Virus record (IMG/VR): IMGVR_UViG_3300045988_137032
Span: 96,001-160,000 of that record
Reading direction: 5' to 3' (one strand)
Length of the DNA: 64,000 nucleotides
Source of the DNA: a virus
The translations under genes were made by a program, and so were the position numbers. This document shows positions 26,679 to 54,536 of the stretch, in pieces. The notes below the pieces were generated by a model. That model was not told the DNA's origin. It saw nothing but the letters and a program-made list of their open reading frames with translations, and did not search any database. Within the stretch, counting starts at the first letter, position 1; each line of letters starts with the position of its first letter.

Positions 26679-26710
26679 AATAAGTTTCCTCCATGTGTTA
26701 TATAAGTTGA

Positions 26711-27184: not shown

Positions 27185-27199
27185 TTATCTGTATCTCCT

Positions 27200-27715
27200 T
27201 TATTCGATATATCCAATTTGATCGATATTAGCAACTCGGATGGGAATGATCTTACACCAGCACTTCTTAGTCCGAGTGGAATCAGAAAGTACCGCACTGG
27301 TATCGTATTTCTCAATGACAGTGTCAAGACACTCATCAATACGATATTTGGGGCGATACACAATATCACCAAGCAATGTCATAGCCATTGTCTTAGTAGG
27401 AATGATCTTAGAGCAGAAAAGAGAATGGACCGGATTCAACGGGCCTCCTTCTCTCACATTGAAGTTTGTCTTAAAGACGATGACGTAAACAAAGTCGCTC
27501 CAAGGGATATCATTGAAAAGTTTAATCTCCTTTTCATAGCATGCATACTCAATGGTAGTATGATTCATATCAAGATCCGTCTGCTTTGTAAGCCATGTAT
27601 TATATTGCGCGATAGCTTCATCAGAAGATTTGTAGGTTTGTGTAAAACCACTAGGGCTATGATGATCGGGATTGTCATCCTTCACAATGTCAAGTAATAG
27701 AAGATAGACTTTCAT
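27200..27715 (-). CDS. MK(V/A)Y(A/V)I-family protein
   Basis: MKVYLLLLDIV...YKSSDEAIAQYNTWL. AGGAGG SD. Confidence 0.65.
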   Translation of the reverse strand: MKVYLLLLDIVKDDNPDHHSPSGFTQTYKSSDEAIAQYNTWLTKQTDLDMNHTTIEYACYEKEIKLFNDIPWSDFVYVIVFKTNFNVREGGPLNPVHSLFCSKIIPTKTMAMTLLGDIVYRPKYRIDECLDTVIEKYDTSAVLSDSTRTKKCWCKIIPIRVANIDQIGYIE

Positions 27716-27736
27716 AATACTTCCTCCTAGAGTTAT

Positions 27737-28012
27737 TTAAGATGCAATATATTCCACACAAATGTGCTCAAACGTATTGTTGCCTATGAAGTTATCGTAC
27801 TCCAGAGCAAGATCATTGATACGGTGAATATTATTCGCATCACTATCTTTCATGAGTACTTTCTCATCAAAGATAGATTGAATCACAGCTTCTTTTCTTG
27901 TATAATGCTGGCAAAAGTTTGTAGTAATGGTCTTAAGATTCCCATTACTATCTTTGAAAGATACCAGCTTCCTACAGAAATATTTCCTTCTCTTACTGGC
28001 TTTGAAAAACAT
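27737..28012 (-). CDS. small hypothetical protein
   Basis: 91-aa ORF with AAGGAG SD. Confidence 0.6.
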   Translation of the reverse strand: MFFKASKRRKYFCRKLVSFKDSNGNLKTITTNFCQHYTRKEAVIQSIFDEKVLMKDSDANNIHRINDLALEYDNFIGNNTFEHICVEYIAS

Positions 28013-28026
28013 CTATCGCATTCTCC

Positions 28027-28323
28027 TTAATAATAGTAAATTTCGGTAGACTCAATGTGGTATTTATTCATACCCTTCTTTCCATCAACGTCATAGCTGA
28101 CAGTAAGAGTATTATCATCAGGACGATCGATGTCAAGCTTCATATCATGATACCCACGGAAAGTTTCTTCCAGAGAATCAAGATAATCAACTGCGTCATC
28201 CTTATTGTAATATCCATGAAGTACTTTACTGGGAACACAAACTACTTCATTCCCAGAAGTAGTATCATAGATATCGTACATGATAAGGTTGACGTTAATG
28301 GTTTTTACTTCAGGATTTTCCAT
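28027..28323 (-). CDS. small hypothetical protein
   Basis: 98-aa ORF with AAGGAG SD. YNKDDAVDYLDSL helix motif. Confidence 0.6.
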   Translation of the reverse strand: MENPEVKTINVNLIMYDIYDTTSGNEVVCVPSKVLHGYYNKDDAVDYLDSLEETFRGYHDMKLDIDRPDDNTLTVSYDVDGKKGMNKYHIESTEIYYY

Positions 28324-28337
28324 AAATACAAATCTCC

Positions 28338-28619
28338 TTATACATATCCTTCGTCTTCTACACGAACTTTTTCAATTTGCACGGTATGGACTTCTTGAAT
28401 TACTTTAGATTCTGCTCCAGGAATCATATCGCATGCTGTGATACGTTTCGTATAAGTGAGGCCCATTCCATCCGGATGCATCATAGCGGTTAAATTATTC
28501 TTTGAAAACTTCTCCAACCACTTTTGTGCATTCAGCAAACGATAGAATGCGGAATTTACTTTTACTTCAATTCCGTATCCATATTCTTCTCGGTCGATGG
28601 TTTCAAGTATTACGTACAT
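28338..28619 (-). CDS. small hypothetical protein
   Basis: The ATG at 28619 (MYVILETID) has AAGGAGG upstream. Confidence 0.6.
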   Translation of the reverse strand: MYVILETIDREEYGYGIEVKVNSAFYRLLNAQKWLEKFSKNNLTAMMHPDGMGLTYTKRITACDMIPGAESKVIQEVHTVQIEKVRVEDEGYV

Positions 28620-28645
28620 AAACAATCCTCCTTGTGTTAATATAA

Positions 28646-29143
28646 TCAATAAAGGTTCATACCTTTTATCAATTCAAAGTTAAAGCAATAATACGTATCA
28701 TCTCTTGACGTATATGCTTTAATCGTACGAGGAACCCCATAGGTTGCAACTACTTCAGGAGAAGCAAGATCAGCATTCTTATTGATCTTAAGAACGATAT
28801 GACCTTTTGTATTCATCAAAGAAACCATATTAGGAATTTTGATCATCATTCCTGCTTTATAATAAGTGACCTTATGAGATGGATCATATCCAGTGGATTT
28901 TCGGCGGAATGTAACGGTAGCAATCTCATTATCGGGAGCCACTTCTACATTCGTTTCGCCATTGTAATTGCGTTTGAAGTATTTATCTTCACAATCACAA
29001 ATCAGTTTATTCCATGTGATATTTCTTGCAGTAGGTTTCATATACAGCTTAGACTGATACAAAGAGAATTTAGGTGCATAAGAACCATCATAGGATTCTT
29101 TCTTTTGAAGAATGGCAAATACTGCCATTTCTGTTTCAAACAT
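28646..29143 (-). CDS. small hypothetical protein
   Basis: 165-aa ORF with GAGGAGG SD. TAATG overlap. Confidence 0.6.
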   Translation of the reverse strand: MFETEMAVFAILQKKESYDGSYAPKFSLYQSKLYMKPTARNITWNKLICDCEDKYFKRNYNGETNVEVAPDNEIATVTFRRKSTGYDPSHKVTYYKAGMMIKIPNMVSLMNTKGHIVLKINKNADLASPEVVATYGVPRTIKAYTSRDDTYYCFNFELIKGMNLY

Positions 29144-29415
29144 TATTCGTCCTCCTCAACAAGAGTTTCCTTCTTTACCATCACGCGGATATCAACCGTT
29201 TTATCCGGATATTCAAAAGTTTGATGCAATATGCGATTGAGAAGTTTATTCAATGTGATGAAAGGAGATTCACATCCATTCGCATAATACTCCACAAGTC
29301 TATCATGTGCCAGTTTAATGGAAGCATATTTCTTTCCTTCAGTATACATAATGACATGATCTTTTGAAGTATCTTTAATATAAACATGAATCTCATAGAT
29401 AGGTATTTCTTTCAT
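29143..29415 (-). CDS. small hypothetical protein
   Basis: 90-aa ORF with AAGGAG SD. Confidence 0.6.
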   Translation of the reverse strand: MKEIPIYEIHVYIKDTSKDHVIMYTEGKKYASIKLAHDRLVEYYANGCESPFITLNKLLNRILHQTFEYPDKTVDIRVMVKKETLVEEDE

Positions 29416-29420
29416 AGAGT

Positions 29421-29711
29421 CTACTCTCCTTCATCAAATTCACATTCCTGAATTTGTGCTACTATGAGTATACAACCATACTTCTTGATATCACTGTAAT
29501 TGTAATAAGAAGCATAGCAAAACACGGTACCGTCATCTTCATTGACTTCAAATGGCGTATGCTTGAAAAGACTATGAACGGAATCACCATCTTTATTAAA
29601 GTCATCTTTAATGCGATAAAGAGCTTTAATTGCTTTCTCTCTATTCTTAAAGACTTTCTTTAAGATAGATGACGAATGGTTATTCGTAACCATAATGACA
29701 TAGGCTTTCAT
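29421..29711 (-). CDS. MK(V/A)Y(A/V)I-family protein
   Basis: MKAYVIMVTNN...FKNREKAIKALYRI. AAAGGAGG SD, preceded by TTAATGATATATTATA. Confidence 0.65.
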   Translation of the reverse strand: MKAYVIMVTNNHSSSILKKVFKNREKAIKALYRIKDDFNKDGDSVHSLFKHTPFEVNEDDGTVFCYASYYNYSDIKKYGCILIVAQIQECEFDEGE

Positions 29712-29754
29712 CTATTTAATACCTCCTTTAATGATCTATAAGTATAATATATCA

Positions 29755-30042
29755 TTAAAGGTTTCTTATTTCAACCCATACGGAAATCACTTCAGACGTA
29801 CTGGGTTCTTTTCCGTGATACACCATATCATGATAAATACACATCTTGTCATCATTTACTTTGTATTCAGAGAATTCAAAGTCTTTATGCTCAAGATGTG
29901 TATTATTTTCTTCATTGAGATTCAGTGTATCACAAATCTCATGAAGTGTATTGAGGGCTTGATCTTTTGAATAATACAGAGGATCATACAAATGATGGAT
30001 TCTGTCAGGATAATACCCTGATACGATAGCATAAACTTTCAT
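29755..30042 (-). CDS. MK(V/A)Y(A/V)I-family protein
   Basis: MKVYAIVSGYY...YYSKDQALNTLHEI. Confidence 0.65.
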   Translation of the reverse strand: MKVYAIVSGYYPDRIHHLYDPLYYSKDQALNTLHEICDTLNLNEENNTHLEHKDFEFSEYKVNDDKMCIYHDMVYHGKEPSTSEVISVWVEIRNL

Positions 30043-30054
30043 AATTAAACCTCA

Positions 30055-30339
30055 TCATTCTTTAGTAAATTCTGATGTATTTTCTGTATACATTTCTTTT
30101 GCAAATGCACTAATATTCGGTTCCTTAGAATCTTTCCAGGTTTCAATAACAGAAAGATCCTCTTCATCAACTGTGTAATACACATGACCATTTTCAACAG
30201 AAATAAGCTGTGACAGTGCGTTCTTTATTTCGTTAAGACGAGAAATACAGCTTTCTTTCGTTGTATAAACCATATCCTCTATCCGAGCAATATTCTTATA
30301 AGGCCCACCATAGGTATGGCAGATAGCATAAACTTTCAT
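30055..30339 (-). CDS. MK(V/A)Y(A/V)I-family protein
   Basis: MKVYAICHTYG...YTTKESCISRLNEI. Confidence 0.65.
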   Translation of the reverse strand: MKVYAICHTYGGPYKNIARIEDMVYTTKESCISRLNEIKNALSQLISVENGHVYYTVDEEDLSVIETWKDSKEPNISAFAKEMYTENTSEFTKE

Positions 30340-30341
30340 AA

Positions 30342-30617
30342 TTAGTTTACCTCAAATTCACGAATATATGCTACAATAATATTATGCTTAAGCTTAGGAT
30401 AATCTTTATATTTTATTGGGTAAAATATCGTCTCGGCCTTTTCATCAACTTCATACGGCTCATGTAATTCAGCAGCCGGTATACGAACCATTCCTTCATT
30501 ATACTGATTGCAAAGTTCATGAAGACGATCAATTGCTTTATCATGATCAAAATGGAATGATTTTATCTCAGGACCATTATTATTAATCAAACTAACTACA
30601 AAATAAACTTTCGTCAC
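30342..30617 (-). CDS. MK(V/A)Y(A/V)I-family protein; paralog of 37001..37282
   Basis: The GTG at 30617 (TKVYFVV) lies 10 nt after AAAGGA. The C-terminus EPYEVDEKAETIFYPIKYKDYPKLKHNII matches 37001..37282. Confidence 0.65.
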   Translation of the reverse strand: MTKVYFVVSLINNNGPEIKSFHFDHDKAIDRLHELCNQYNEGMVRIPAAELHEPYEVDEKAETIFYPIKYKDYPKLKHNIIVAYIREFEVN

Positions 30618-35254: not shown

Positions 35255-35554
35255 ATGAAAATTATTAGCATTACGACTCAAGAAAGCGAAGCCGTTGAGC
35301 GGGCTTATTATGAGTCGCAATCATATGAATCCATCGTTTCTATTCTCTGTAGAGAATTGAATGAAAACGCAAATCCTTTAACATCTGAGATGCTCCATCA
35401 TTATATCGACTTGTGCAAAACTGCAAAGATGCGTCTCAAATTGACGCAAGACAATGTAATTGGCAGATACGTCGACAAGTCGGAGTTTAATAATGCCCCG
35501 GTAACATTTGATTTTGAGCGCGAGGAGATGTTGGTATCAGATGAAAAAGCGTAA
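35255..35554 (+). CDS. small helical protein, possible accessory factor of the radical SAM enzyme
   Basis: 99-aa ORF. Its 3' end overlaps the ATG of the radical SAM gene, suggesting translational coupling. Confidence 0.55.
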   Translation: MKIISITTQESEAVERAYYESQSYESIVSILCRELNENANPLTSEMLHHYIDLCKTAKMRLKLTQDNVIGRYVDKSEFNNAPVTFDFEREEMLVSDEKA

Positions 35555-36905
35555 TAAGCGTCTCTATGAAGAGTATACTGATATGGTCCAAAGGCTGTAT
35601 AAGAAAGACTTTGTTCTCAGCGGAGCATTATCAGCATTGAAAATTTGCAGATATGTGACTTTTCAGATTACGAATGCTTGCAATCTTCGGTGTTCTTATT
35701 GCTATGAGCATAATAAGAACTGTGGAGCCATGAGCCTTGATACAGCCAAGAAAGTCGTCGACTATATTCTTGACTTGTATGCTGACAACACATCTGATTT
35801 CATCTCTCAGCAAACAAAGGGTGTTGTTCTTGATTTTATCGGCGGAGAGCCTCTTCTGGAAGCTGAACTGATTGAGCATATTTGCGACTATTGGTTCGAG
35901 CAGTGCTATAAAAGAGACATTCCTCTCGGCCCGTTTACAAGAATCTCGTTTGCTACAAATGGTAAGGCTTGGTTTGAGCCTGCATCCATGCATTTATTTG
36001 AAAAATACCATGATATCATGTCGGTCACAGTATCTATTGATGGTGTTCAAGAACTTCATGATATGTACCGTGTTGACAGTAATGGCGTTGGAAGTTTTGA
36101 AATGGCTTGGCGAGCTTTTCAAGATGCAAAAGCTCGATATGGCTGGCTTAATTCCAAGATGACATTTGTTCCCGGATCAATCAAATATTTATACTCCAGT
36201 GTGAAAATGATGATTGATGAAGGGTGCACTTATATTCATGGTAATTGTGCATATGAGCCCATGTATACAAATGAAGATGGGAAAAACTTGTATAACGAGC
36301 TTAAGAGACTTGCCAATTATATCATAGATGAGCATCCGGATGTATTCTTTGCAATGTTTAATCCAGATGAATATGGTGAAGCAGTCGATTTAGTGCATGA
36401 TGATAACAACTACTGTGGTGGTACGGGAAATATGCTATCATTTGCTCCGGACGGCAAAGCATATCCATGTATCAGATACGCTCCCATTTCTATCGGAAAT
36501 GAGAAAGCAGCCAAAGTATGCTTTGGCGATGTCAATAATGGTGGACTATACGCAACCGAAGAACAACGCAAAATTAAGCGTGAGTTGGATGCTATCACCC
36601 TGACATCGCAATCTACAGACGAATGTATCAATTGCCCTGTATCCAAAGGATGTGGATGGTGCTCTGGATATAATTACGAAAAATATGGTACTGCAAATAA
36701 GAGATATACTGGAATTTGCAAAGCACACAAAGGCAATGTCCTTGCTGTGTACTATTATGTGAACACTCGGTATCTTAAACTTGGCGATACGGAACCGAAG
36801 AAGATTAAACTGCCTTATGATGAGGTAGTAGAAATTCTCGGTAAAGAAGAAGCTGACAATCTTTTCGCCCTTGAAAAGGAAGCTTTTTCTCACTACGAAA
36901 TGTAA
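35541..36905 (+). CDS. radical SAM enzyme with SPASM-type C-terminal Cys clusters (peptide maturase-like)
   Basis: CNLRCSYC (CxxxCxxC), GGEPLL and C-terminal CGGTG...PCIRY...CINCPVSKGCGWCSG...CKAHKG. Confidence 0.8.
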   Translation: MKKRNKRLYEEYTDMVQRLYKKDFVLSGALSALKICRYVTFQITNACNLRCSYCYEHNKNCGAMSLDTAKKVVDYILDLYADNTSDFISQQTKGVVLDFIGGEPLLEAELIEHICDYWFEQCYKRDIPLGPFTRISFATNGKAWFEPASMHLFEKYHDIMSVTVSIDGVQELHDMYRVDSNGVGSFEMAWRAFQDAKARYGWLNSKMTFVPGSIKYLYSSVKMMIDEGCTYIHGNCAYEPMYTNEDGKNLYNELKRLANYIIDEHPDVFFAMFNPDEYGEAVDLVHDDNNYCGGTGNMLSFAPDGKAYPCIRYAPISIGNEKAAKVCFGDVNNGGLYATEEQRKIKRELDAITLTSQSTDECINCPVSKGCGWCSGYNYEKYGTANKRYTGICKAHKGNVLAVYYYVNTRYLKLGDTEPKKIKLPYDEVVEILGKEEADNLFALEKEAFSHYEM

Positions 36906-37000: not shown

Positions 37001-37282
37001 ATGGCAAAAATTTATTCTGTATTTACTTTGATTGGTGGTTATGGCCCTGAGATAGAATCATCCTATTTTGATCATGATAGAGCAGTCAATCATCTTTATG
37101 AACTTTGCGATTACTATAATGAAGAAATGCGGAATGATCATGTACCGGCTGCTGAATGTCATGAGCCGTATGAAGTTGATGAAGAGACTGAGAAGATATT
37201 TTACCCAATAAAATATAAAGATTATCCTAAGCTTAAGCATATGATTATTACAGCATGGATTAGAGAATTGGAGGTTCAATAA
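37001..37282 (+). CDS. MK(V/A)Y(A/V)I-family protein; paralog of 30342..30617
   Basis: MAKIYSVFTLIGGYGPEIESSYFDHDRAV...EPYEVDEETEKIFYPIKYKDYPKLKHMII. Confidence 0.65.
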   Translation: MAKIYSVFTLIGGYGPEIESSYFDHDRAVNHLYELCDYYNEEMRNDHVPAAECHEPYEVDEETEKIFYPIKYKDYPKLKHMIITAWIRELEVQ

Positions 37283-37284
37283 TT

Positions 37285-37560
37285 ATGAAAGTTTATGCTA
37301 TTATTTCCACTTATGCATCAAATCCTGAAGCTGAGCTTGAATCTATTGCTTATTCTAGTAGAGAGAAAGCGATTGCGTATTTGTATTCATTATGTGATAA
37401 ATATAATGCATGGTGTAGAAAATCATCTTATCCAGAGCAGCGTACTCGGATATATGAAGTTGATGAAATTAACGGCGCCATCTATTATAAATACATTGAC
37501 TCTTTAAATCGTGTTTCTCGTATTGATGAAACATGGATTAAAGAATTAGAGGTAGAATAA
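37285..37560 (+). CDS. MK(V/A)Y(A/V)I-family protein
   Basis: MKVYAIISTYA...YSSREKAIAYLYSL. GGAGG SD. Confidence 0.65.
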   Translation: MKVYAIISTYASNPEAELESIAYSSREKAIAYLYSLCDKYNAWCRKSSYPEQRTRIYEVDEINGAIYYKYIDSLNRVSRIDETWIKELEVE

Positions 37561-37562
37561 TT

Positions 37563-37916
37563 ATGAAAATTTATGTTATCGTATGTAGAAATAACTATTC
37601 CACGTGGATAGATGATAAAACCTTTACTGAAGAAGCAGAAGCATTCCTATATGCTTACCGTTCAATTTCAAGTCCCGTAATGTGGAAAGTATGTCCGATT
37701 AATGTTGATATCTCTAATGAGATGAGTGTTTCTGACACACTACTTGGACAAAATAAGGATGTCTAGATTGAAATTCTCTATGACCCAAGAAACCACTTAG
37801 GTACTAGGCATGTTATCTCTCCTTCTCATATAAAGTATTATGCGCTTCCTACAGAGCAAGGTGATATAAATAACCTTAAAAGAGGATTAATACGTCGTAT
37901 TTATCAAGGGCTTTAA
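37563..37916 (+). pseudogene. MK(V/A)Y(A/V)I-family gene interrupted by an in-frame TAG (37764-37766)
   Basis: MKIYVIVCRNN...WKVCPINVDI...GQNKDV*IEILYDPRNHLG...ISP aligns across the stop with 26711..27184 (...TRNIWIEILYDTRYLG...ISP). The TAG sits at the W position. Confidence 0.6.
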
Positions 37917-37992
37917 ACGCTTGATGATGCGCATACGATAAAGATCATTATCTGAAAACACCAAATTAACGTAGAGAGAGAAAGGAGGAAAT

Positions 37993-38544
37993 ATGATGGA
38001 AATAAAAGAAGCCATTGTGGAAGCTTGTAGTAATAGTCTCATTACTGCAACAGAAGCAATGCAGTTATTTTCCATTATAACGGAATCCGAAGTAAGTGAA
38101 GTTGATAAAGACTTTAAACCAAAAGAAAGTATGAAATTATCATCTTTTCAGAAAATCCATATTACAGAATCCATCACAGAAGAATACAAAAGTAAATATC
38201 CGGATCTAAAGCATGTAAGATGCAAAGATACGGATACATACAAGTGTGATGGATATATGTGGATGGACGGAGAAAATCTAGTATGCCATGTAGGATCATG
38301 TGAATACTTGGATGATAAAACAAAATGGATCGTATCGTTAGAAATAACGAAAAACTATAAAGGTCATGGATTATCAAAACAACTGATTGATTATGCTGTG
38401 AAGAATATGAAATGCAAATATCTATCAGTGGATAAGAGCAATAAACTCGCAAAGATGATCTATGACGAATATGGGTTTAAAGTATATCAAGAAGACAAGA
38501 AAATGTATTATATGACACTGGATAAAAATCCAGTAAAATCATGA
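37993..38544 (+). CDS. GNAT-type acetyltransferase with capsid-targeting-like N-terminal leader
   Basis: Leader MMEIKEAIVEA. GNAT motif A-like NYKGHGLSKQLIDYAV...MIYDEYGFKV. Confidence 0.6.
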   Translation: MMEIKEAIVEACSNSLITATEAMQLFSIITESEVSEVDKDFKPKESMKLSSFQKIHITESITEEYKSKYPDLKHVRCKDTDTYKCDGYMWMDGENLVCHVGSCEYLDDKTKWIVSLEITKNYKGHGLSKQLIDYAVKNMKCKYLSVDKSNKLAKMIYDEYGFKVYQEDKKMYYMTLDKNPVKS

Positions 38545-38565
38545 TGAAAGGAGAATATAGCATAT

Positions 38566-39648
38566 ATGGATTGGATGAAATTACAACTTTCTATTTATGA
38601 AAGTTATTCCAATGGTGATATTACAAAAGACGCATGCGATAGTCTTATCAATTCCATCTATAATAAGATTGGTGATAGTATCGTTGAAGAAGCAGAAAAT
38701 GCTGAAAACGAATTCATCAATACTTCACTTAACGTGCTTACTGAAAATACTCATGATAGCAATTTACTTATGGAAGCAGCTAATACGTTCGCTGATAAAG
38801 TAAAAGCATTATGGGAAAAATTTAAAGCGTGGCTGAAAGCTTTAATTAATAGGCTATTTGGCAGAAAAGAAAAACCTTCCGGGAAAGTAAATGGTCCGAA
38901 AGGTTTAATGAATGCTTTAAATACGCTGAAATCGAAAGTGAAATCACTGAAAGGTGCTACTGGAGCTAAGGTAGCAGTAGCTATCGGTGGTATTGCAGTT
39001 TCTATCGCTGGTGTAAAGAAAGTTCTCAGCAACAAAGGCGATACAGAAGAAGTAGATGCTAATGCTGTAGATAAATCTTGTAAAGATATCATGGATGGTT
39101 GCCAATCAGTATCTGAAGATCAATCCAAAAAAAAAGGTACTGTGGATAAAGAGAATCCTGTATCAAAAGTTATCAAAGCACTCCGTGATACTGCATCATT
39201 AATTGGAAGTGTTGTGAGTGGATTGATCCATCGCAAGGCTTCCAATCAAACTGAAAATAAAGCGTCAAATAATCCAGTTCTTAGTAAAGAATTTATGGAC
39301 GCAATCAATAAGAAAGATAATCTTGCTGTAAAGATTATGATTAAGGATGCTATTGTTTTTGATGCCACAGACACAAAAGGGATTCGTAGTGTTCCTCCTA
39401 TGCTTTCAGAAGCTAAGAAGAGTACTCCTGAAATTTTTGACAACCAAGAAAAATTCGATGATATGACAGATGATAAGTCCAAATGGACAATGGATTATAT
39501 GAATTTGCATCTTGTGAAATTGATGAGTGGTAACTTCACGGAAGAGAATATTCATTATCTTGAAAAAGTTGCTAAAATAGCGATGAATAATAATTCTAAG
39601 AAAGATACTACATCAAAATCTTCTGATAATGATAAAGAAAGGGGATAG
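38566..39648 (+). CDS. leader-bearing putative internal head/ejection protein (type I leader)
   Basis: MDWMKLQLSIYES, LLMEAANTFADKVKALWEKFKAWLKALI, hydrophobic helix AKVAVAIGGIAVSIAGV. Ends with TAG. Confidence 0.45.
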   Translation: MDWMKLQLSIYESYSNGDITKDACDSLINSIYNKIGDSIVEEAENAENEFINTSLNVLTENTHDSNLLMEAANTFADKVKALWEKFKAWLKALINRLFGRKEKPSGKVNGPKGLMNALNTLKSKVKSLKGATGAKVAVAIGGIAVSIAGVKKVLSNKGDTEEVDANAVDKSCKDIMDGCQSVSEDQSKKKGTVDKENPVSKVIKALRDTASLIGSVVSGLIHRKASNQTENKASNNPVLSKEFMDAINKKDNLAVKIMIKDAIVFDATDTKGIRSVPPMLSEAKKSTPEIFDNQEKFDDMTDDKSKWTMDYMNLHLVKLMSGNFTEENIHYLEKVAKIAMNNNSKKDTTSKSSDNDKERG

Positions 39649-39653
39649 GAAAA

Positions 39654-40685
39654 ATGACAAATTTACAGCACGCTATTATGGAAGCTTCCAATTCAGATCT
39701 CATCTCATTTGAAAATGCATCAATGATGCTTACTATGTATGAGTCTGATGGTGAAGAAAAGGACACTATGGCCGATAAGATTAAAAAAGCTTGGGAGGCA
39801 TTTAAGAAATGGCTTCGTGACCTTATCAATAAGCTTACTGGTAAAAAGATTAACGACCGTGAGGTTAAAGTTCAGGAGCATAAGTGGAATGCTCTTAACA
39901 AATGCGCAAGCTATGTCAACAAAGCAGCGTCTAAGAATTTTACTGATGAAGATTCTGATGATGATCCTGTGATTGATAATCTTTTCATTGCATCAGAGTA
40001 TTTTACTGCAAAGACAGCAATTTCTCAGAAGATGGCAACTGTTACAGTCCAAGAGGTTCATGATCTGACAGTTAAAATTCATAAAGATCTTGATAAGATC
40101 ACTGAGAAAGCTGAAAATGGTACTCAAACACAGAAGAAGACCACAATGATGTATGTGCGGAAGATTTCCAATAACGTAACCTCTATTGAGAATCAGTGCA
40201 CGTCTTCTGATCATGCAAACTATGACACTGCTATTAAGCGTGCTTATCAGGATTATTTCGATAAGAATGTCAAGGACTATATGTACGTGCTGAATCTTCA
40301 GCTGATGTGCTCTAATGAGGGTCGCCCTGAAGATGACGATGGCCGATATGATTCGAAAGCCGACGCATATCGAGATTTCTGTCAGTCAATTAAAGCAAGA
40401 ATTGACGCTGAGTATTACAGAATTTCCAGAAATCCCGATATTGCAACTACCGAGGAAGAGAAGGCTAAACTACAAAAGGATCTTGAAGCTGGCAATGTGT
40501 CCGGCTATGCTGGTGATGTAATAAATCTTGCTAAGTTTGTTGGTAAGTGCTGCTCTCAGGTTAAAGCAAATAATTCTAGTAGCCTGAAGACAAAGTCTGG
40601 TAAGATTTATGATGAATATCATAAGATTATCAATTATCTTGCCTTCGAGATGAGATGGTGCAGGAATGCCAGACTGACTCACTAA
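39654..40685 (+). CDS. leader-bearing putative internal head/ejection protein (type II leader)
   Basis: MTNLQHAIMEAS...MYESD...ADKIKKAWEAFKKWLRDLI. Confidence 0.45.
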   Translation: MTNLQHAIMEASNSDLISFENASMMLTMYESDGEEKDTMADKIKKAWEAFKKWLRDLINKLTGKKINDREVKVQEHKWNALNKCASYVNKAASKNFTDEDSDDDPVIDNLFIASEYFTAKTAISQKMATVTVQEVHDLTVKIHKDLDKITEKAENGTQTQKKTTMMYVRKISNNVTSIENQCTSSDHANYDTAIKRAYQDYFDKNVKDYMYVLNLQLMCSNEGRPEDDDGRYDSKADAYRDFCQSIKARIDAEYYRISRNPDIATTEEEKAKLQKDLEAGNVSGYAGDVINLAKFVGKCCSQVKANNSSSLKTKSGKIYDEYHKIINYLAFEMRWCRNARLTH

Positions 40686-40697
40686 CAACTTATTTAA

Positions 40698-40741
40698 AAA
40701 TACACGTCTTATTAGTGATAATACTAATAAGACGTGTATTT
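40698..40741. terminator. bidirectional terminator between convergent family members
   Basis: Perfect 19-bp stem AAATACACGTCTTATTAGT/ACTAATAAGACGTGTATTT with flanking A and T runs. Confidence 0.75.
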
Positions 40742-40746
40742 TTTAA

Positions 40747-41616
40747 TTAAGAACGGACAACAAGATCTTTACCATTTCCAATAATACGATGACCGTTTTT
40801 ATCGAAAACGTCTGTTTCCGGATTTACGTATACTCGTTCAACAGGAACTGGTTTATTACTAAAAACACTCGGAAGAGATTCCACCCAAACAAGAATCCGA
40901 TGGAGAGTTCGAATCAGCTTACCTGTATTGGTTTGATCGCAATAATGTTGCTCAAGAGTAGAAATGATCTTATTGATACTCTTCTTGATGGTATCCACAA
41001 TACCAATCAGAGCAGCAACACCAACAAGCACCATGCCTTTCGAAATACGAACGGCATCAACTCCTGCAGACACTGTAGTCCAACCGATCATACCGCACTG
41101 AACCACAATCTCCAAAAGGTTTTTATACCAGGCTTCATCATCAATTGAACGTTTTGCTTTCTTGATATCCTTAGCAGATGGACTATCATTCGGATAAAAG
41201 AATTGAGTTACCTTAGCCGAAATATCAATAAGACTCTTATCAATATTTTTCAGAAGATCAACTGCTGCTTTCGGGAGAGAAACCTTTTCTTCACGCTTAC
41301 GTGCGCCAAGCTTTGTAAGAAGTTTGTCCCAAAGTTCAGATACCCATTTCTTAAACTTCGCAAGTGCATTGGAAACCTTCTGGCCGAAAGTTTCTGCTTT
41401 CTTTTCAAAATATGCACATGCAGCATCACCGTTTGCATAGTCGATAGCAGTCTCAATGAAAGTGGATTCTGCAAGATTCATTTCTGAAATAGCTTCTTCC
41501 ATATATGAAGATGATTCAGAATCAATCATATTCATAAGATCAAGTGCTGCCTCTGATGAAATAGATCCATCAGATGCGCCCTCATAAATCATAGATTTCA
41601 AATCATAAAAATCCAT
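40747..41616 (-). CDS. leader-bearing putative internal head/ejection protein (type I leader)
   Basis: MDFYDLKSMIYEG...ETFGQKVSNALAKFKKWVSELW. Hydrophobic helices near the C-terminus. Confidence 0.45.
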   Translation of the reverse strand: MDFYDLKSMIYEGASDGSISSEAALDLMNMIDSESSSYMEEAISEMNLAESTFIETAIDYANGDAACAYFEKKAETFGQKVSNALAKFKKWVSELWDKLLTKLGARKREEKVSLPKAAVDLLKNIDKSLIDISAKVTQFFYPNDSPSAKDIKKAKRSIDDEAWYKNLLEIVVQCGMIGWTTVSAGVDAVRISKGMVLVGVAALIGIVDTIKKSINKIISTLEQHYCDQTNTGKLIRTLHRILVWVESLPSVFSNKPVPVERVYVNPETDVFDKNGHRIIGNGKDLVVRS

Positions 41617-41677
41617 AATTATATATCTCCTTTCTAGTTTAAATATATTAAGACGCTTATATTGATGTTTTCTGATA

Positions 41678-41719
41678 AAAATGACTGAGAATAATTGGTT
41701 TTATTATTCTCAGTCATTT
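41678..41719 (-). terminator. terminator after 41726..43129
   Basis: AAATGACTGAGAATAAT/ATTATTCTCAGTCATTT stem with T-runs in both directions. Confidence 0.65.
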
Positions 41720-41725
41720 TTTTAG

Positions 41726-43129
41726 TTAAGACCAATTACGAGTCCTGAAAGTCTTCTGCATAACACAACCTTCATACCCACAAAGCATAGCGCGAGCAAT
41801 CTGGAGATCATCAACACACTTTACAATACCTTTGATTGCATCTAAATCATATTTCACATGGTTCTGGTTTTCAATATATCTGTATTTTTCAACAGCATCA
41901 GTTGCTTTCTTAGCGCGAGCAATCAATTCTTTTCCGAGATTGCACACATCACCAGACCCTTTCCTAAGATCCGCAGCATACCTATCAAAACTCGGGTCAC
42001 TGCTACCATAGAAATTTTCGTCGGTTTTATAATAAATCCCTTTAATCAGCTTTTCGCAATTATTATATGCACTCTGTACGAGTTTGGAATCGCTTTGCCA
42101 TTTTCCATACTGCTTTAAATATTCACCATAGAATGGTTTATTAGGATCCTGCCGTGACATCAATCTAAGATATTTATGGCAATCACCAATAGAAGCGTCA
42201 ACCGACTCATATACACCGTCAAAGTCAATACTCTTAAGGAATTCCTTTGCAGCAATACGTGCCTCTTTAGAAACCTTAGCGTCAGCAGCCTTACCAGCTT
42301 CCGTACTCATAGGAAGCATGAGAACAACTGCGTTACTTACAGCATCTGCTACAGATGCAGCAGCCTGAACAGCAGAAACAGCTGCAGAAGGAGAAGGCTT
42401 ATTATCTTCTTCTTTCTTCGCTGCGTTATTCGGTGCCTGAACAGGTGTGTCCGTCTTGTTATCATGAAGAACTGTCCTACTATCACGGCGAGCAAGATCT
42501 TCATAAGTCTTCGGAGTATGGTTTGAACTTTCTTCAGAAATAGGCTTTGCCGCGTCTGAATCAGCTACAGCGCTCGATGCCTGTGCAATCTCACCAGAAA
42601 TCTCAATGATTCTCACAGGCTCAACTTCTTCAGTAGGACCTTCAACTTTCTTGGAAGGCTTCAGCTTCTTAACGATCGCAACTGCGCCAACAACAGCTGC
42701 CAGCGCGGAAGCAATAGCAACTGCACCTTTAGCGCCCTTAAGCTTATTAAGACCATTCTTAAGCTGTTCAAGAGCCTTCATAAGTCCCTTAGGAACTTTA
42801 ATCTTACCCTTCTTAGCCTTCTTGGATCTGCCAGTGATCTTGTCGATAATACCTTTGACCCACTTCTTAAACTTTTCCCAAAGAGCACGAACCTTATCAC
42901 CGAAGGTCTTAGCTGCTTCAACAACGATATCGGTATCAATGCTTGCTGCCGACTCCATGATATTCATAGTAGAATCAATGAATTCGGTTTCAGCATGCCG
43001 CATTTCACTTACGATATCTTCGCCACGCTTGTTGTCGATGCTACAAATCATCGACTCACAGACAGCTTCTGAGATATCACCACATTCACATCTCTCATAG
43101 AGAGATAACTTAAGAGTATAATAATCCAT
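41726..43129 (-). CDS. leader-bearing putative internal head/ejection protein (type I leader)
   Basis: MDYYTLKLSLYER...IVVEAAKTFGDKVRALWEKFKKWVKGII...AVAIASALAAVVGAVAIV. Confidence 0.45.
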   Translation of the reverse strand: MDYYTLKLSLYERCECGDISEAVCESMICSIDNKRGEDIVSEMRHAETEFIDSTMNIMESAASIDTDIVVEAAKTFGDKVRALWEKFKKWVKGIIDKITGRSKKAKKGKIKVPKGLMKALEQLKNGLNKLKGAKGAVAIASALAAVVGAVAIVKKLKPSKKVEGPTEEVEPVRIIEISGEIAQASSAVADSDAAKPISEESSNHTPKTYEDLARRDSRTVLHDNKTDTPVQAPNNAAKKEEDNKPSPSAAVSAVQAAASVADAVSNAVVLMLPMSTEAGKAADAKVSKEARIAAKEFLKSIDFDGVYESVDASIGDCHKYLRLMSRQDPNKPFYGEYLKQYGKWQSDSKLVQSAYNNCEKLIKGIYYKTDENFYGSSDPSFDRYAADLRKGSGDVCNLGKELIARAKKATDAVEKYRYIENQNHVKYDLDAIKGIVKCVDDLQIARAMLCGYEGCVMQKTFRTRNWS

Positions 43130-43150
43130 AGTTAATTTACCTCATTTCTA

Positions 43151-44392
43151 TTACATCAGTCCACGAGATTTACATACAGACTTCAAAGATTTGATCTGTC
43201 TAGCATATGCGTCAACTTCACGCTTATACTTTGTATAACGCGTCGCTTTATTTGCTTCCTTATCGCCAAGATCCATATCCTTCGACTGCTTATAGAATTC
43301 CTCGATAAAGGTATCTGCAGAATCAAAACAATGAGAGATAATAATCTTTTTCGTTGAATCCGAGATGTTCTTATCATTCATAAGACGAGTAATGTTTGCA
43401 ATACTCTTACGGATAACAGGGCCGCTGTATGTATATACAGAAAGGAACGATTGGACCATGGTGTCAGACCACTTTTTATACTCAGGACTATTCCGTTCGA
43501 ACTTCATGACAGCGTTCTTATATTTATTTCCCATCAAGGTGAGATCCACAATGAATTTGCTATGGATCGCCATGACCTTGTCATATTCATCATTCAGCTT
43601 CATGTACTTAGCCAGTTCAGCATTATATTCTGATGTGCCGGTTTTGTATTTCGACATTTCGCTATTGACTTCAGACATTTTACTTTCGAGATCATTGCAC
43701 TTAGCATAATTTCCGCTATCATTATATTTTTTAATGAAAGCATCCATCTTTTGCTTAATAGACTCGGCTTCAGAACCAATAGGTTTTTCACCAGCTTGTG
43801 CAGCGTTCATTTGATTGATCATATAATTAGTAATGCCTTTGCGCTCGTCTTCGGTTTCAGCTAAAACGATACTAGCAATAGCACTATTGCACAGCGAAAT
43901 AATTGGACGAAGAATCTTGATAATCTTACTATCACCATTCTTCGCTTCCAGATCATTCAGTTTACCTTCAATTTTAAGAAGGTTATCTTTAATGCCAGAA
44001 ACGATATCATCACTATATGCAACGACCATTGCCGTAGTAAAAGCAAAAGTTGAAATACCGATAGTTGACAGGGTTTCCAGCTGTTCGGAATCATAGGGAG
44101 GCTTAAGATACTTAATGACATCATCAGTAAGTTTCTTAACCTTCTTCAGATCATAACGAACACGAGTTTTGATATCACCCTTACCAGTCAATTTCAGCTT
44201 TACTTCCGAAATCTTATTCTGGATTTTTACAACGATATCATGGACCCACTTCTTAAAAGCTTCCCATGCTTTCTTCAGTTTTTCTGCAAATGATTCAGAC
44301 TCATACATCATCGAAATCATCTGGTTTGCTTCAGAAATACTAATCAATCCTGAACTTGATGATTCAAGGATTGTGCATTGTAAATCAGTCAT
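43151..44392 (-). CDS. leader-bearing putative internal head/ejection protein (type II leader)
   Basis: MTDLQCTILESS...MYESESFAEKLKKAWEAFKKWVHDIV. Confidence 0.45.
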   Translation of the reverse strand: MTDLQCTILESSSSGLISISEANQMISMMYESESFAEKLKKAWEAFKKWVHDIVVKIQNKISEVKLKLTGKGDIKTRVRYDLKKVKKLTDDVIKYLKPPYDSEQLETLSTIGISTFAFTTAMVVAYSDDIVSGIKDNLLKIEGKLNDLEAKNGDSKIIKILRPIISLCNSAIASIVLAETEDERKGITNYMINQMNAAQAGEKPIGSEAESIKQKMDAFIKKYNDSGNYAKCNDLESKMSEVNSEMSKYKTGTSEYNAELAKYMKLNDEYDKVMAIHSKFIVDLTLMGNKYKNAVMKFERNSPEYKKWSDTMVQSFLSVYTYSGPVIRKSIANITRLMNDKNISDSTKKIIISHCFDSADTFIEEFYKQSKDMDLGDKEANKATRYTKYKREVDAYARQIKSLKSVCKSRGLM

Positions 44393-44477
44393 GTTATAAC
44401 CCCTTTCTTATAGATTAAAGCGTTATAAACCTGTTTTCACTATACAACCAGGATTAAATGTAAAAAATCGTTTTTAT

Positions 44478-44519
44478 GAAAGGAGAGTTACCCATACTAA
44501 AATAGGTAACTCTCCTTTC
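44478..44519 (-). terminator. hairpin after 44523..45239
   Basis: Perfect 15-bp stem GAAAGGAGAGTTACC/GGTAACTCTCCTTTC. Confidence 0.55.
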
Positions 44520-44522
44520 ATA

Positions 44523-45239
44523 TCATTTCAGATTCAAAGGAAGCATATAAGCATATTTCAGCTTATCAACGATCTTGGATTCTTTTATACATTTCAAAAG
44601 CATAGCATAATATTGCGGATCCGGATATTTACAGTCAGCTTCATCCTGAATCTCCGAATAAAACGCCTGTAATGTCATATCCACATTTGAAGAAATATAT
44701 GTGTAGATTGATCTAGATACGACTACTTTATCAAAACCTTGATTTGCAAAAAGTGGAATTTCCATAGCATGCTTAAACTTAATTCCACCGCCAAATATAC
44801 TGGTTCCTAAATAAATGCCTTCGGTAATCATATCTTTACCTTTGTATGCATTCATGTAGCACTTAATGGTGTCGTTAAGTTCGTCACATTCACAATTTAT
44901 GAGTTGATCTTTTATATCCATAGCGGTTTTAAACATGATCTTTGTACTGGTTGGTTTTGTCATGTACACATCATGATCATATGGATCATCATTAGGATAT
45001 TTCTTACAGATACTAATAGCTCTTTTGTATTCACGGTCTAAATTCTTAAAGAATCTATCAATATCAGCAATACGATCATCTACAACCTTTTTATAGTTAT
45101 CATATAAAATTTTCTTGTATTCGTCAGTAAGGAATGTTTCAGACCCTTCTGTAACCATAGTAAACATGGAAGCCGCTTCATTAGATGAAATGAGATCATC
45201 TTTCATAGCTTCCATGATAGACATTTGTAAATTTGTCAT
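44523..45239 (-). CDS. leader-bearing protein (type II leader)
   Basis: The ATG at 45239 (AAAGGAG upstream) gives MTNLQMSIMEAMKDDLISSNEAASMF. Confidence 0.45.
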   Translation of the reverse strand: MTNLQMSIMEAMKDDLISSNEAASMFTMVTEGSETFLTDEYKKILYDNYKKVVDDRIADIDRFFKNLDREYKRAISICKKYPNDDPYDHDVYMTKPTSTKIMFKTAMDIKDQLINCECDELNDTIKCYMNAYKGKDMITEGIYLGTSIFGGGIKFKHAMEIPLFANQGFDKVVVSRSIYTYISSNVDMTLQAFYSEIQDEADCKYPDPQYYAMLLKCIKESKIVDKLKYAYMLPLNLK

Positions 45240-48882: not shown

Positions 48883-49815
48883 TTAAACTGCAACAGGAAT
48901 ATTCTTAACCTGAGGGCCTGCCTGATAATTTTCCACAATCAGAGAATCCGTTGTGAAATCATAGAAGTTCTTGATCTCAGGATCAAGGGTAACCTTCGGT
49001 GCGTGATAAGTGGGTCTGGTAATCATCTCTCTAATAATATCCATGTGACGATCATAAATATGAGCATCAGCAATGACATGCACCAGTTTACCAGCAGTCA
49101 TGCAAGATACCTGTGCAACCATCATGAGAAGAATTGCATACTGGCACACATTCCAGTTATTTGCAACCAGAGTATCAGAACTACGCTGATTGAGAATCAT
49201 ATTCAGTACAGGTTTATCGGAGAAGGGATCTACCGTTACGTTCCAAGTAGTAGAATATGCACAGGGATACAAACCCATTTCAGAAAGATCATTGAAGTTG
49301 TAGGTATTCGTCATGATACGGCGAGAATAAGGATCGTTCTTTAAATCATAAAGAACTGCATCCATTTGATCCATCATGACATAAGGATTTCCGTTCTTTG
49401 CAAATACAGTATTCTCAGGATAAGCACCATAGATGTTCATATGTGCTTTGTGATGCTTATACTGCTTACCAATCTGATAGCCATATGCTTTACCAATGGA
49501 ACCATCAGCATCTGCCCAAGAATCCCAAATATGGGAATTCAGGTTATGGACGTTATTATCCTTCTTCTGGTAAATCCAAAGGATTTCATCCATACAAGAT
49601 TTCAATGCAGTCTTACGAAGAGTCAGTGCAGGAAATTCTTCACGAAGATCATAGGTATTTACAATACCAAACTCCTTTGCTGTACATGCAGTAATCTTCG
49701 TATCAGGCCACATTGCTCTTGTAGCATAAAGAGGTACAGGACCAAGTTCAGAATATTCTCCAATATGGAGAATCTTCTTACACTCATCAATGAAAATATT
49801 ATCAGCCTTACTCAT
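48883..49815 (-). CDS. thyA: thymidylate synthase (ThyA type)
   Basis: FPALTLRKT...EILWIYQ...IWDSW, LYPCAYST (catalytic Cys) and QRSSDTLVANNWNVCQYAILLMMVAQV...DAHIYDRHMD. Confidence 0.85.
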   Translation of the reverse strand: MSKADNIFIDECKKILHIGEYSELGPVPLYATRAMWPDTKITACTAKEFGIVNTYDLREEFPALTLRKTALKSCMDEILWIYQKKDNNVHNLNSHIWDSWADADGSIGKAYGYQIGKQYKHHKAHMNIYGAYPENTVFAKNGNPYVMMDQMDAVLYDLKNDPYSRRIMTNTYNFNDLSEMGLYPCAYSTTWNVTVDPFSDKPVLNMILNQRSSDTLVANNWNVCQYAILLMMVAQVSCMTAGKLVHVIADAHIYDRHMDIIREMITRPTYHAPKVTLDPEIKNFYDFTTDSLIVENYQAGPQVKNIPVAV

Positions 49816-52469: not shown

Positions 52470-52991
52470 ATGCGCGCTATAGTTGCAGTTAGTAATAACT
52501 GGGGTATTGGAAAGAATAATAAACTTCTTTTCCATATCAAAGAAGATATGCAGAGATTTAAGGAATTAACTACCGGGCATGTCTGTATTATGGGAAGAAA
52601 AACATTTGAATCTTTCCCATTTAAGAAACCATTACCAAATCGTACCAATGTAGTATTGACTCATGATACAAACTACAAGAGTGAATACGATAATGTGATC
52701 ATCGTTCATACCATGGATGAACTTAAGGAACTCATTAAGATGTATCCTTCGGAAGAAGTTTATCTCATTGGTGGCGATAGTCTTTACAATGCATTGATTG
52801 ACTATTGCAGTACAGCATACGTTACTTACGTTGATAAAGAAATGGATGCTGATGCATATTTCCCGAATCTTCATAAGAAGAAAGATTGGTGGATGATGAT
52901 TGATACTTTCCCGAATTATCATCATGATGATAAGACAGGATTGAATTACAGATTCTCTACCTATATCAATGATAACGTAAAAAGTTTATAA
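52470..52991 (+). CDS. folA: dihydrofolate reductase
   Basis: MRAIVAVSNNWGIGKNNKLLFHIKEDMQRFKELTTGHVCIMGRKTFESFP and LIGGDSLY. Confidence 0.85.
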   Translation: MRAIVAVSNNWGIGKNNKLLFHIKEDMQRFKELTTGHVCIMGRKTFESFPFKKPLPNRTNVVLTHDTNYKSEYDNVIIVHTMDELKELIKMYPSEEVYLIGGDSLYNALIDYCSTAYVTYVDKEMDADAYFPNLHKKKDWWMMIDTFPNYHHDDKTGLNYRFSTYINDNVKSL

Positions 52992-53431: not shown

Positions 53432-54259
53432 TTACGTATTAGCCCTATATTTAAGGATGTTGAGGTCATCAGACTGATCTTTGTATCCATGAACAACTGC
53501 ATGTGCTTTACGCGGATCCTCACCTGCAATTAAAGAAAGCGCGCCATATGTAGCATCCATAGCTCCTCCAGCAACACAACGTAAAATAAATTTTACAATA
53601 TCTTGAACGAATCCTATTGCTTTTCTAAGTGCATCAATGCATTTAGATGATTCCTTATTCGGGTCATTTGATTCTGATTGTTTTTCTGCATGTTTTTGCA
53701 TATCTCGAGACATCTGTTCAGAATCCTTAAGAATTTTTCCCAAGGTATCACCACCAACATAGTCGAAACGGACATCATCTGAAAGTTCACGCTCATGCTT
53801 TATGTAACTGATAAAACTTAAGCTGCTAACAATAGCAATTGCTTGAGCATATCCTGATGATGACCCACTTATTAAGTTATGAACTGCAGTTTTTAATTGT
53901 GAAAACTTTTCACGAAATCCTTTTGGAAGTTTATATTTTTTATCATTTTTAATATTAGGCTTTTTATTAAAAATCCTATTGATAATAGATTTAATCCATT
54001 CCGCAAATTTTCTCCATGCAGCTTTAATTTTATCGATAAACGTAGAAGCTGCCTCTGTCATTACATAGAAGTCACTTTCTTTATTTACGACAGACATGGA
54101 AGATTCAATGAATTCATTTTCAGCAGATGCTGCTTCACTGATGATTGAATCTACATATTTCTCATTGATTGTTTCAAGCATATCACATGCTGCATTCTTT
54201 GTAATTTCACCATTTTGATAACTTTCATAGATAGAAAGTTCCATATCTCTAAAATTCAT
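53432..54259 (-). CDS. leader-bearing putative internal head/ejection protein (type I leader, dispersed copy)
   Basis: MNFRDMELSIYES...YVMTEAASTFIDKIKAAWRKFAEWIKSII. Confidence 0.45.
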   Translation of the reverse strand: MNFRDMELSIYESYQNGEITKNAACDMLETINEKYVDSIISEAASAENEFIESSMSVVNKESDFYVMTEAASTFIDKIKAAWRKFAEWIKSIINRIFNKKPNIKNDKKYKLPKGFREKFSQLKTAVHNLISGSSSGYAQAIAIVSSLSFISYIKHERELSDDVRFDYVGGDTLGKILKDSEQMSRDMQKHAEKQSESNDPNKESSKCIDALRKAIGFVQDIVKFILRCVAGGAMDATYGALSLIAGEDPRKAHAVVHGYKDQSDDLNILKYRANT

Positions 54260-54536
54260 AGAAATACCCTCACCCTTTCAAATGGATAATTGTATGATAA
54301 ATATTAAGAATGTGTTTTTTTTGGTAATATTAGCAATTCAACGTTTTTATATCTCGTTACATCGCTCCCTAGTTATAGAAATTACAGCTATAATCAGGGA
54401 GCGAAGCCAGATTTTCATTCATCGGAGACGGCCGATGTGCTGCACCGATGTATTTAAAATCAACAAATGGTGGTGTATACATTGTAGGATTTTATATAAA
54501 TTAACATTGCACTAGATCACAAATATACTAAAAATA

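Follow-up and report, generated by a model that had tools for sequence, protein, structure and literature searches.

A nine-gene family with a shared N-terminal helical tag in a human-gut jumbo phage: candidate polymorphic internal head proteins

Proteins that are packaged in the head and injected are the first means by which a phage counters host defences, and to our knowledge the detailed work on them rests mostly on T4 and phiKZ-like phages. The capsid-targeting sequence of T4 is MKTYQEFIAE, and a single cut follows it (PMC8442874). In phiKZ, gp93 is cut at E13|S14, and the 70 residues that come next bind the inner capsid surface (PMC11297242); the ejection proteins of SPN3US obey a like logic, with a transmembrane (TM) domain opening mature gp47 (PMC5694885). 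Here we describe a nine-gene family in 64,000 nucleotides of viral DNA (positions 96,001 to 160,000 of IMG/VR record IMGVR_UViG_3300045988_137032; this whole stretch, numbered from its first letter, is "the window" below). Seven of the genes are adjacent (37993–45239), and two are dispersed (53432–54259 and 56443–56874). A preliminary description of the window had read their products as head-packaged, protease-processed proteins that are ejected into the host. We consider it reasonably probable—about 0.6 by our estimate—that the nine genes encode polymorphic internal head proteins (core or ejection proteins) of a gut jumbo phage of the AR9/PBS1/phiR1-37 lineage, docked through an N-terminal hairpin and trimmed at an I-x-E motif. 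The earlier reading thus gains from a motif shared with the capsid protein, a common promoter motif, a Pfam link and the hypervariability of the locus, but the leader length and the general presence of a TM-like segment that it proposed did not hold.

The preliminary description had placed all nine open reading frames (ORFs) correctly as to position and strand, and the leaders that it quoted are exact when read from ATGs supported by a Shine-Dalgarno (SD) site: in 9/9 ORFs, a strong site (AAAGGAG-like) stands 5–10 nt before the leader-yielding ATG. For the genes at 44523 and 56443, the longest ORF begins further upstream; the SD-supported ATGs are at 45239 and 56874, with the motif then falling at residue 1, and P0006, P0007 and P0009 (238–240 aa), which are homologous to the 44523 gene product, likewise begin at MTNLQ. 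A hidden Markov model (HMM) of the first 36 residues matched the nine among 912 six-frame ORFs of the window with E values of 1e-13 to 1e-17. Having been trained on the nine themselves, this model informs only on a tenth member, and the next best ORF scored E 0.23; we therefore count exactly nine family members in the window. The proteins are 143–467 aa long and resemble one another only across their N-terminal 30–130 residues. Their C-termini are unrelated, as had been proposed: a GNAT domain follows the shared N-terminus in one of them, and a relative has tandem SUKH domains at the same locus.

What had been taken for a leader of 10–13 residues is longer. In an alignment of the nine proteins, the conserved stretch reaches to about residue 32 and reads L-x-x-x-I-x-E-[AS]-x-x-x-G-x-I-[ST]-x-x-E-A-x-x-h-h-x-x-I. 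The two leader types recognised earlier, I and II, are indeed both recognisable and related, but they are one module with an N-terminal offset of 2 residues; type I alone has an extra acidic insert of ~35 residues (..AENEFI..) ahead of an amphipathic helix. All nine proteins carry the I/L-x-E reported for every leader, located at residues 7–12. AlphaFold2 predicts an all-helical structure for the product of the 43151 gene (mean pLDDT 74), in which helices 3–13 and 19–31 would form a hairpin and residues 33–69 a long helix; the conserved stretch thus appears to correspond to a two-helix hairpin. The amphipathic helix is clear in 6/9 members, and a hydrophobic segment is clear (19-residue Kyte-Doolittle mean >1.7) in the products of four genes, those at 38566, 41726, 40747 and 43151. 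An amphipathic helix followed by a TM-like helix is therefore not the general arrangement that had been described.

The motif within the module has the form [S/A]-I-x-E|[S/A]. We compared 67 distinct N-termini of the family. At P3, 63 have I, 3 have L and 1 has V; at P1', 57 have S or A. All 67 have E at P1, but by construction, because an h-x-E pattern was used to locate the site; in a 54-sequence family alignment that is independent of this pattern, the P1 Glu column is at least 90% conserved. The same kind of site occurs in the major capsid protein precursor (60799–62541, + strand; PHROG major head protein, 3.5e-32), whose N-terminus, MNNHLSFLTE|SS, carries the first of two predicted sites, SFLTE10|S and PIYE66|A. 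By tblastn, this protein matches the capsid proteins of AR9, a Staphylococcus jumbo phage and phiR1-37. In T4, gp23 is cleaved at GSFLTE65|AEIGG (checked against PDB sequences), and positions P5–P1 are identical to those of the window's SFLTE|S. The second site lies at the propeptide/core boundary: the conserved core starts at about residue 70, where the alignment to a solved jumbo-phage capsid protein (PDB 7x30) also begins. Relatives in the clade keep both sites, and one of them reads PIYESY, the string found in type I leaders; the Machias capsid protein has VVFE|SY at the position aligned with PIYE66|A. Since tag and capsid sites share I-x-E|[S/A], the motif marks the places at which capsid maturation would be expected, and all of these sites are predictions.

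The likeness to T4 extends further. In IPI, IPII, IPIII and Alt, as here, a tag that starts at residue 1 closes with I-x-E, the next residue being A or S; it is attached to unrelated, non-essential-looking cargo that includes an enzyme (the ADP-ribosyltransferase Alt there, a predicted GNAT acetyltransferase here); and the capsid SFLTE site is identical. The differences are as plain. The tag in the window is ~32 residues long, is predicted to be folded and is conserved far past the putative cut, whereas that of T4 has ~10 residues. Many members of the family further possess an amphipathic helix, to which a TM-like segment is added in some, and packaging and cleavage are here proposals. Homology to T4 internal proteins was not detected: the only Pfam and PHROG matches, neither of them significant, were phrog_2497 ("internal head protein", E 0.0015) and T4_CASP (E 0.063), and tblastn against 50,697 phage genomes gave no match.

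The family is also tied to the head genes by position and by a promoter motif. In AR9, the late-promoter consensus is AACA-N6-TA/G (PMC5312081). The longer motif AAAACA-N6-TAA, which contains this consensus, has 8 exact sites in the window against 1.06 expected, a count that 0/100 shuffles reached. All eight face a downstream gene, and four of these stand before family transcription units (hypergeometric P = 0.0025 for the family's share): at 37955–37969 (+), before the operon of members 1–3 (37993–40685); at 41657–41671 (−), before member 4; at 44423–44437 (−), before the operon that starts with member 6 (44392–41726); and at 54304–54318 (−), before member 8. Two others precede head genes, namely a 727-aa gene of the head block (57000–59183, +; motif at 56940–56954, +) and the major capsid gene, ~90 nt upstream of its ATG (60694–60708, +; motif end 60708, ATG 60799). 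That family units and head genes have this motif in common argues for expression of the family late, alongside the head genes. Two one-mismatch versions, before the 44523 and 56443 genes, are well positioned and were set aside for want of statistical support. A sigma-70 promoter scan of the window found 34 sites against 32 expected, i.e. no enrichment. Between the two convergent family operons lies a hairpin with a 20-bp stem and a T-run (40698–40741, as listed on the + strand), which is likely their shared terminator. The head block itself runs from the 727-aa gene through an acidic, low-complexity, scaffold-like protein of 280 aa (59879–60721, +), which begins MIE|A ... FMFE|A and matches AR9 g116 in position, to the capsid gene. 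In the distant relative L196, whose capsid protein is 68% identical, two tag-bearing genes stand directly upstream of the corresponding 727-aa-like/scaffold/capsid block.

Comparison with close relatives shows the locus to be hypervariable, as is the T4 internal-protein locus. In relative L004, the genes that flank the syntenic locus are 88–96% identical to those of the window. Its cluster comprises seven tag-bearing genes that are window-like only in their first 30–130 residues, and the first of them (L004:1470–2885) encodes two SUKH domains where the window has GNAT. In another relative, the first three cluster genes are 94% identical at the DNA level, and the rest, half of the cluster, has been swapped for other tag-bearing genes. 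From nearly identical flanks around divergent clusters, we conclude that the locus is a hotspot of cassette exchange with a constant tag. The family is supported independently by sequences beyond the window: searched exhaustively with a profile, 1.84 billion protein representatives yielded only 76 matches, spanning 33 to ~630 aa, and in nearly all of them the match starts at residue 1–6. Megablast of the cluster, and tblastn of a type I N-terminus, P0074 and P0076 against the same 50,697 phage genomes, gave nothing usable; IMG/VR scans with a DnaB fragment and a 399-aa flank protein gave no matches.

Two subfamilies are also conserved at their other end. P0028, P0030, P0040, P0042, P0045, P0046, P0056 and P0063, all from outside the window, share an acidic C-terminal tail (..DFDFESMLADLDI), and proteins of the subfamily to which the 43151 gene belongs end in K-S/Q-R-G-L/I-I/L/M. 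These tails look like second, C-terminal interaction motifs, to judge from their sequences.

Fast turnover bears directly on one alternative, in which the proteins are components of the prohead core or scaffold and nothing else, cut like T4 gp22, gp67 and gp68, degraded and expelled; nothing functional would be delivered, and the variable C-termini would be tolerated filler. Linkage to the scaffold/capsid block would fit such a role, as would the all-helical structures that the modelling predicts, the acidic linkers and multiple h-x-E sites of type I members, and the repetition of the module along the protein in distant relatives, where cutting would chop the protein small. Nevertheless, folded GNAT and tandem SUKH domains would make poor disposable scaffold, and rapid exchange of cassettes among near-identical phages is typical of host-interaction genes and not of core assembly. 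The distribution of the sites points the same way. Further h-x-E sites do occur in type I members, and one stands directly before the amphipathic helix in 6/9 members of the family, but the sites cluster in the first ~70 residues instead of running along the whole protein. We regard a purely structural, disposable role as unlikely.

If the nine are instead internal head proteins that outlast maturation, the following sequence of events can be proposed. The ~32-residue hairpin would act as a capsid-targeting domain that docks each protein onto the assembling prohead core or the inner surface of the shell, and its [S/A]-I-x-E|[S/A] would be a site such as T4-like prohead proteases cut. Once the head has matured, cleavage would free the tag together with the acidic linker, and both would leave the head. 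In six members, the remainder would consist of an amphipathic Lys/Trp helix and a variable C-terminal domain, with a basic stretch and a hydrophobic segment clear in some only; in the other three, it would be cargo alone, for example the GNAT acetyltransferase. What remains would then be ejected along with the DNA. Membrane-active members may aid DNA entry, and cargos that resemble enzymes or immunity proteins (GNAT in the window, tandem SUKH in the relative) may target host molecules or defences.

Inner-body proteins of phiKZ (gp92–97) and SPN3US (gp47, gp53 and gp54) offer a second precedent for such a scheme. Like the present family, they form paralogous clusters with a conserved leader of 11–15 residues ending in h-x-E, followed by an acidic linker and helix-rich domains; phiKZ gp92–95 and gp97 begin with analogous leaders (MSLLKMLDKLSLE|S and similar). 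PF12699, the family of phiKZ internal head proteins, was the only Pfam family matched repeatedly, by 7/54 family members at E<1e-3. P0026, in which the N-terminal region is of type I, scored 29.5 bits, above the cut-off of 27, and six further members scored 19.0–24.4 bits (E 2e-5 to 1e-3) over the same region; all of these matches span the acidic insert and the amphipathic helix. At the level of sequence, the family as a whole is thus borderline with respect to PF12699. It departs from phiKZ in that the protease motif there is S/A/G-x-E, whereas P3 here is almost always Ile, as in T4; the similarity is centred on one amphipathic helix; and the window's phage belongs to an AR9-like lineage, not to the Chimalliviridae. 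We know of no description of cargo swapping with GNAT or SUKH among the phiKZ internal proteins. Within the AR9-like phages, AR9 g096 ("virion protein") and two paralogues on contig L204 share the unit "h-x-E then xF..KVK..W/F..K" and lie near a gp21-type protease gene; they differ in being only weakly similar (E 3e-5 to 7e-3, against tiny databases) and in missing the 32-residue module. The L204 pair (L204, which is the same as L015; 7615–10260, −) consists of two adjacent paralogues on an AR9-like IMG/VR contig, 2–5 kb from the protease gene, and both have the "I-x-E then F..KVK..W/F..K" helix (t1 HMM, 3e-5 and 1.6e-4).

A number of results weigh against our reading, and one of them concerns the protease. 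The preliminary description had proposed, as a check, a search for a prohead protease. The cultured relatives AR9, Machias and phiR1-37 each encode a T4 gp21-type (Peptidase_S77-type) enzyme, but a gp21-type protease was not found in the ~124 kb that we read, which is about half of the clade's genome of ~250–262 kb. This search covered the window, L002, L007, L094, L109–113 and L115–116, with ~60 kb of flanks from ENA and IMG/VR relatives, by means of tblastn with the AR9 protease, an NRNxRxY regular expression and a five-sequence gp21 HMM on six-frame ORFs. Wider searches did not help. A protease alignment searched against a protein database and degenerate motifs scanned for in IMG/VR both gave results swamped by T4-like proteases, aquatic ones in the first case and unrelated ones in the second, and a narrower IMG/VR scan with motifs of the AR9-group proteases gave 17 loci, none of this clade. 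Moreover, the slot upstream of and divergent from the scaffold/capsid block, which in AR9 (g114) and Machias (065) holds an intron-containing prohead protease gene, is occupied in this phage by the 143-aa member 9 (56443–56874) and by no protease. Judged by gene order, the prohead protease would have moved from that slot or been replaced in this clade.

The comparisons offer further grounds for caution. The nine window proteins gave no match to PF12699 at E<=0.1 and so are not members by the Pfam rule, and hhalign against phiKZ gp92–95 and gp97 only was not significant (E 0.21, probability 0.3%, with five paralogues), with the alignment covering the regions where a match was to be expected, namely the amphipathic helix and the GIS... 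segment. One-mismatch versions of AAAACA-N6-TAA are not enriched in the window, and the assignment as a late promoter leans on a consensus borrowed by analogy from AR9. A Foldseek search of BFVD with the model of the 43151 gene product returned generic coiled-coil matches only, none at E<=0.001. The I-x-E would sit within a folded helical hairpin, and structural reasons alone could explain its conservation. Finally, the phage is uncultured: its sequence and those of its relatives show the family, its modular build, the conserved motif, the common promoter motif, the hypervariability and the link to the head genes, and from these we infer docking, cleavage, head retention, ejection and effector roles.

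Some of these same results would suit a different account, in which the module is a SHOCT-like hairpin for oligomerisation or docking on late proteins that are never packaged and that serve at a membrane (lysis timing, superinfection exclusion or remodelling), its I-x-E being structural. The module is modelled as a two-helix hairpin and is weakly similar to hairpins of the SHOCT, plectin-repeat and VbhA kinds. In distant relatives it is also seen inside the protein and at the C-terminus, which counts against a simple leader as well, and TM-like hydrophobic segments and basic stretches are present in several members. P0076 carries three more copies of the module close to its C-terminus, from which it follows that the module is a small independent domain and not a leader only, and a holin gene lies near P0076 in L196. 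The failure to find a prohead protease in the ~124 kb would be expected. Yet this account leaves unexplained why the tag is at residue 1 in nearly all 76 database representatives, why IYE[S/A]Y and FLTE|S strings recur at the capsid propeptide boundaries, why there is a Pfam link to the phiKZ internal head proteins, and why soluble GNAT and SUKH cargos bear the tag. We judge it improbable. With ~32 residues and its internal and C-terminal copies, the tag behaves as a binding domain with a cleavage-type motif inside it.

A bolder version of our reading, which we put forward only tentatively and as possible rather than probable, is that the 32-residue hairpin is a portable "pack-and-inject" tag that loads ever-changing effectors into the head; SUKH and acetyltransferase cargos could then neutralise toxin-based host defences on entry, and the locus would be the phage counterpart of polymorphic effector systems. 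Polymorphic toxin/immunity systems do share with it a constant N-terminal delivery module, cassette-like C-termini and SUKH among the cargos. They differ in that toxin domains, a secretion apparatus and immunity pairs were not seen here, so the relation is one of analogy, not membership. By analogy, too, the family resembles in function the T4 targeting sequence, internal proteins and Alt, and the inner-body proteins of phiKZ and SPN3US. What is new is the longer tag with its predicted fold, the T4-like P3 Ile combined with faint phiKZ_IP kinship, the AR9-like gut lineage and the documented swapping of GNAT and SUKH cargo. If our reading is right, an abundant, uncultured clade of human-gut jumbo phages shares the head-injection strategy and has its own, easily recognised tag. 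The tag would be a sequence handle for candidate injected effectors in metagenomes, with GNAT and SUKH as first examples, and the family would join the T4-style Ile-x-Glu logic of targeting and cleavage to the phiKZ internal proteins by way of an AR9-like lineage. The tag would, in addition, be a candidate means of bringing foreign proteins into phages of gut anaerobes, and on the bolder reading gut phages could be engineered through it to deliver cargo.

The nine members can be described individually as follows. Member 1 (37993–38544, +; leader MMEIKEAIVEA; module HMM E 6.5e-15; SD GGAGG) is the first gene of the plus-strand operon and consists of the module and a predicted GNAT acetyltransferase domain. 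Over residues 62–169, it scores above the Pfam cut-offs for such enzymes (Acetyltransf_10, 27.8 bits against 23.6; Acetyltransf_1, 27.9 against 20.7), and it has a PHROG acetyltransferase match of 5.2e-7. Member 2 (38566–39648, +; type I) has the module, the acidic insert, LLME|A, the amphipathic K/W helix, a basic stretch, a hydrophobic segment at 136–154 and a unique C-terminus; its homologue P0001, 93% identical, is encoded on a contig of 265,914 bp. Member 3 (39654–40685, +; type II) has the module, MYE|S, the amphipathic helix and a unique C-terminus. On the minus strand, member 4 (40747–41616; type I) has a diverged helix and a hydrophobic segment at 189–207, and member 5 (41726–43129; type I) combines IVVE|A, the helix, a basic stretch, a strongly hydrophobic segment at 135–153 and a long, unique C-terminus. 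Member 6 (43151–44392, −; type II plus helix), predicted to be all-helical, is 413 aa long and bears the subfamily C-terminus K-S/Q-R-G-L/I. Member 7 (44523–45239, −; type II) takes ATG 45239 as its true start, in common with P0006, P0007 and P0009. The dispersed member 8 (53432–54259, −; type I) lies between the dihydrofolate reductase (DHFR) gene and the head-gene block, and member 9 (56443–56874, −; type II) is divergent from that block.

About 1 kb upstream of the cluster lies a gene for a radical SAM/4Fe-4S enzyme (35541–36905, +; Pfam 9.8e-10), which raises the thought that the shared N-terminus is a leader of the kind found on ribosomally synthesised and post-translationally modified peptides (RiPPs), recognised by this enzyme. 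A shared leader with variable downstream sequence would agree with this notion. The products, however, are proteins of 143–467 aa with folded domains, not short precursors; the upstream neighbours of the L004 cluster are a repeat protein and XkdX in place of a radical-SAM enzyme; and the members at 53432 and 56443, like the L196 relatives, are without a radical-SAM neighbour. Because the adjacency is not conserved, we reject this explanation as highly implausible. The radical-SAM gene is followed by three small paralogous ORFs (93, 91 and 67 aa; 37001–37766, +), two of which end in ...ELEV. The enzyme and the small ORFs could be a small system of their own, the adjacency of which to the tag family is not kept in L004.

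As to the phage itself, the window encodes split RNA-polymerase (RNAP) beta/beta' subunits, RNase H, a head-tail joining protein, thymidylate synthase, DHFR and the major capsid protein. The last is 23–27% identical to the capsid proteins of Staphylococcus jumbo phages, Bacillus AR9/PBS1 and Yersinia phiR1-37, and a contig of 261,761 bp from a human-gut metagenome (ENA ERZ918917 k127_22657) codes for an identical protein. IMG/VR relatives, among them IMGVR_UViG_3300045988_137295 (250,047 bp), measure 250–262 kb. The source is a ~260-kb human-gut jumbo phage, distant kin of AR9/PBS1, the Staphylococcus jumbo phages and phiR1-37.

Starting at the capsid gene, the genes are arranged as in AR9: a zincin-like gene, a g125-like virion protein, a 651-aa ORF in the position of the sheath and an 803-aa minus-strand ORF in that of the portal. 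Only the zincin-like and g125-like genes have AR9 sequence matches; for sheath and portal, the assignment comes from size, order and strand. The zincin-like protein (HEVGH motif; L002:13913–15163, ~3.1–4.4 kb past the right end of the window) is encoded ~1.4 kb downstream of the capsid gene, behind four small ORFs. In AR9 (g118) and L196, and probably in Machias (069, judged from position only), the capsid gene is closely followed by a homologue of the zincin-like gene or by one of the same size, and it is the sole protease-like gene seen near the clade's head genes.

The closest cultured relatives (AR9/PBS1, phiR1-37 and Staphylococcus S6-like phages) use dU instead of dT. Since the window encodes thymidylate synthase (48883–49815, −) and DHFR (52470–52991, +), this clade is probably without uracil-DNA; the AR9-type late-promoter motif is present despite these genes. 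A tandem run of ~13 small minus-strand ORFs (90–185 aa; 25757–30617) has strong SD sites and carries no annotation; one of them (28646–29143, −; 165 aa) overlaps its upstream neighbour by stop/start. Near the left end, a PemK/MazF-type toxin gene (1927–2448, −) lies between the large RNAP beta' gene and seven minus-strand ORFs of unknown function. The exact toxin-type protein is indexed in 54 public-assembly blocks, 11 of them with contigs of 0.2–1 Mb, and 24 carrier contigs were read. Just left of the window is a gene for the anaerobic ribonucleotide reductase NrdD (L007 16217–19312), with a weak, sub-threshold Pfam match to intein splicing domains. A sister contig has an HNH homing endonuclease gene between the PemK toxin and large RNAP beta' genes and a weaker HNH match between NrdG and NrdD; mobile elements thus appear to be active in the clade.

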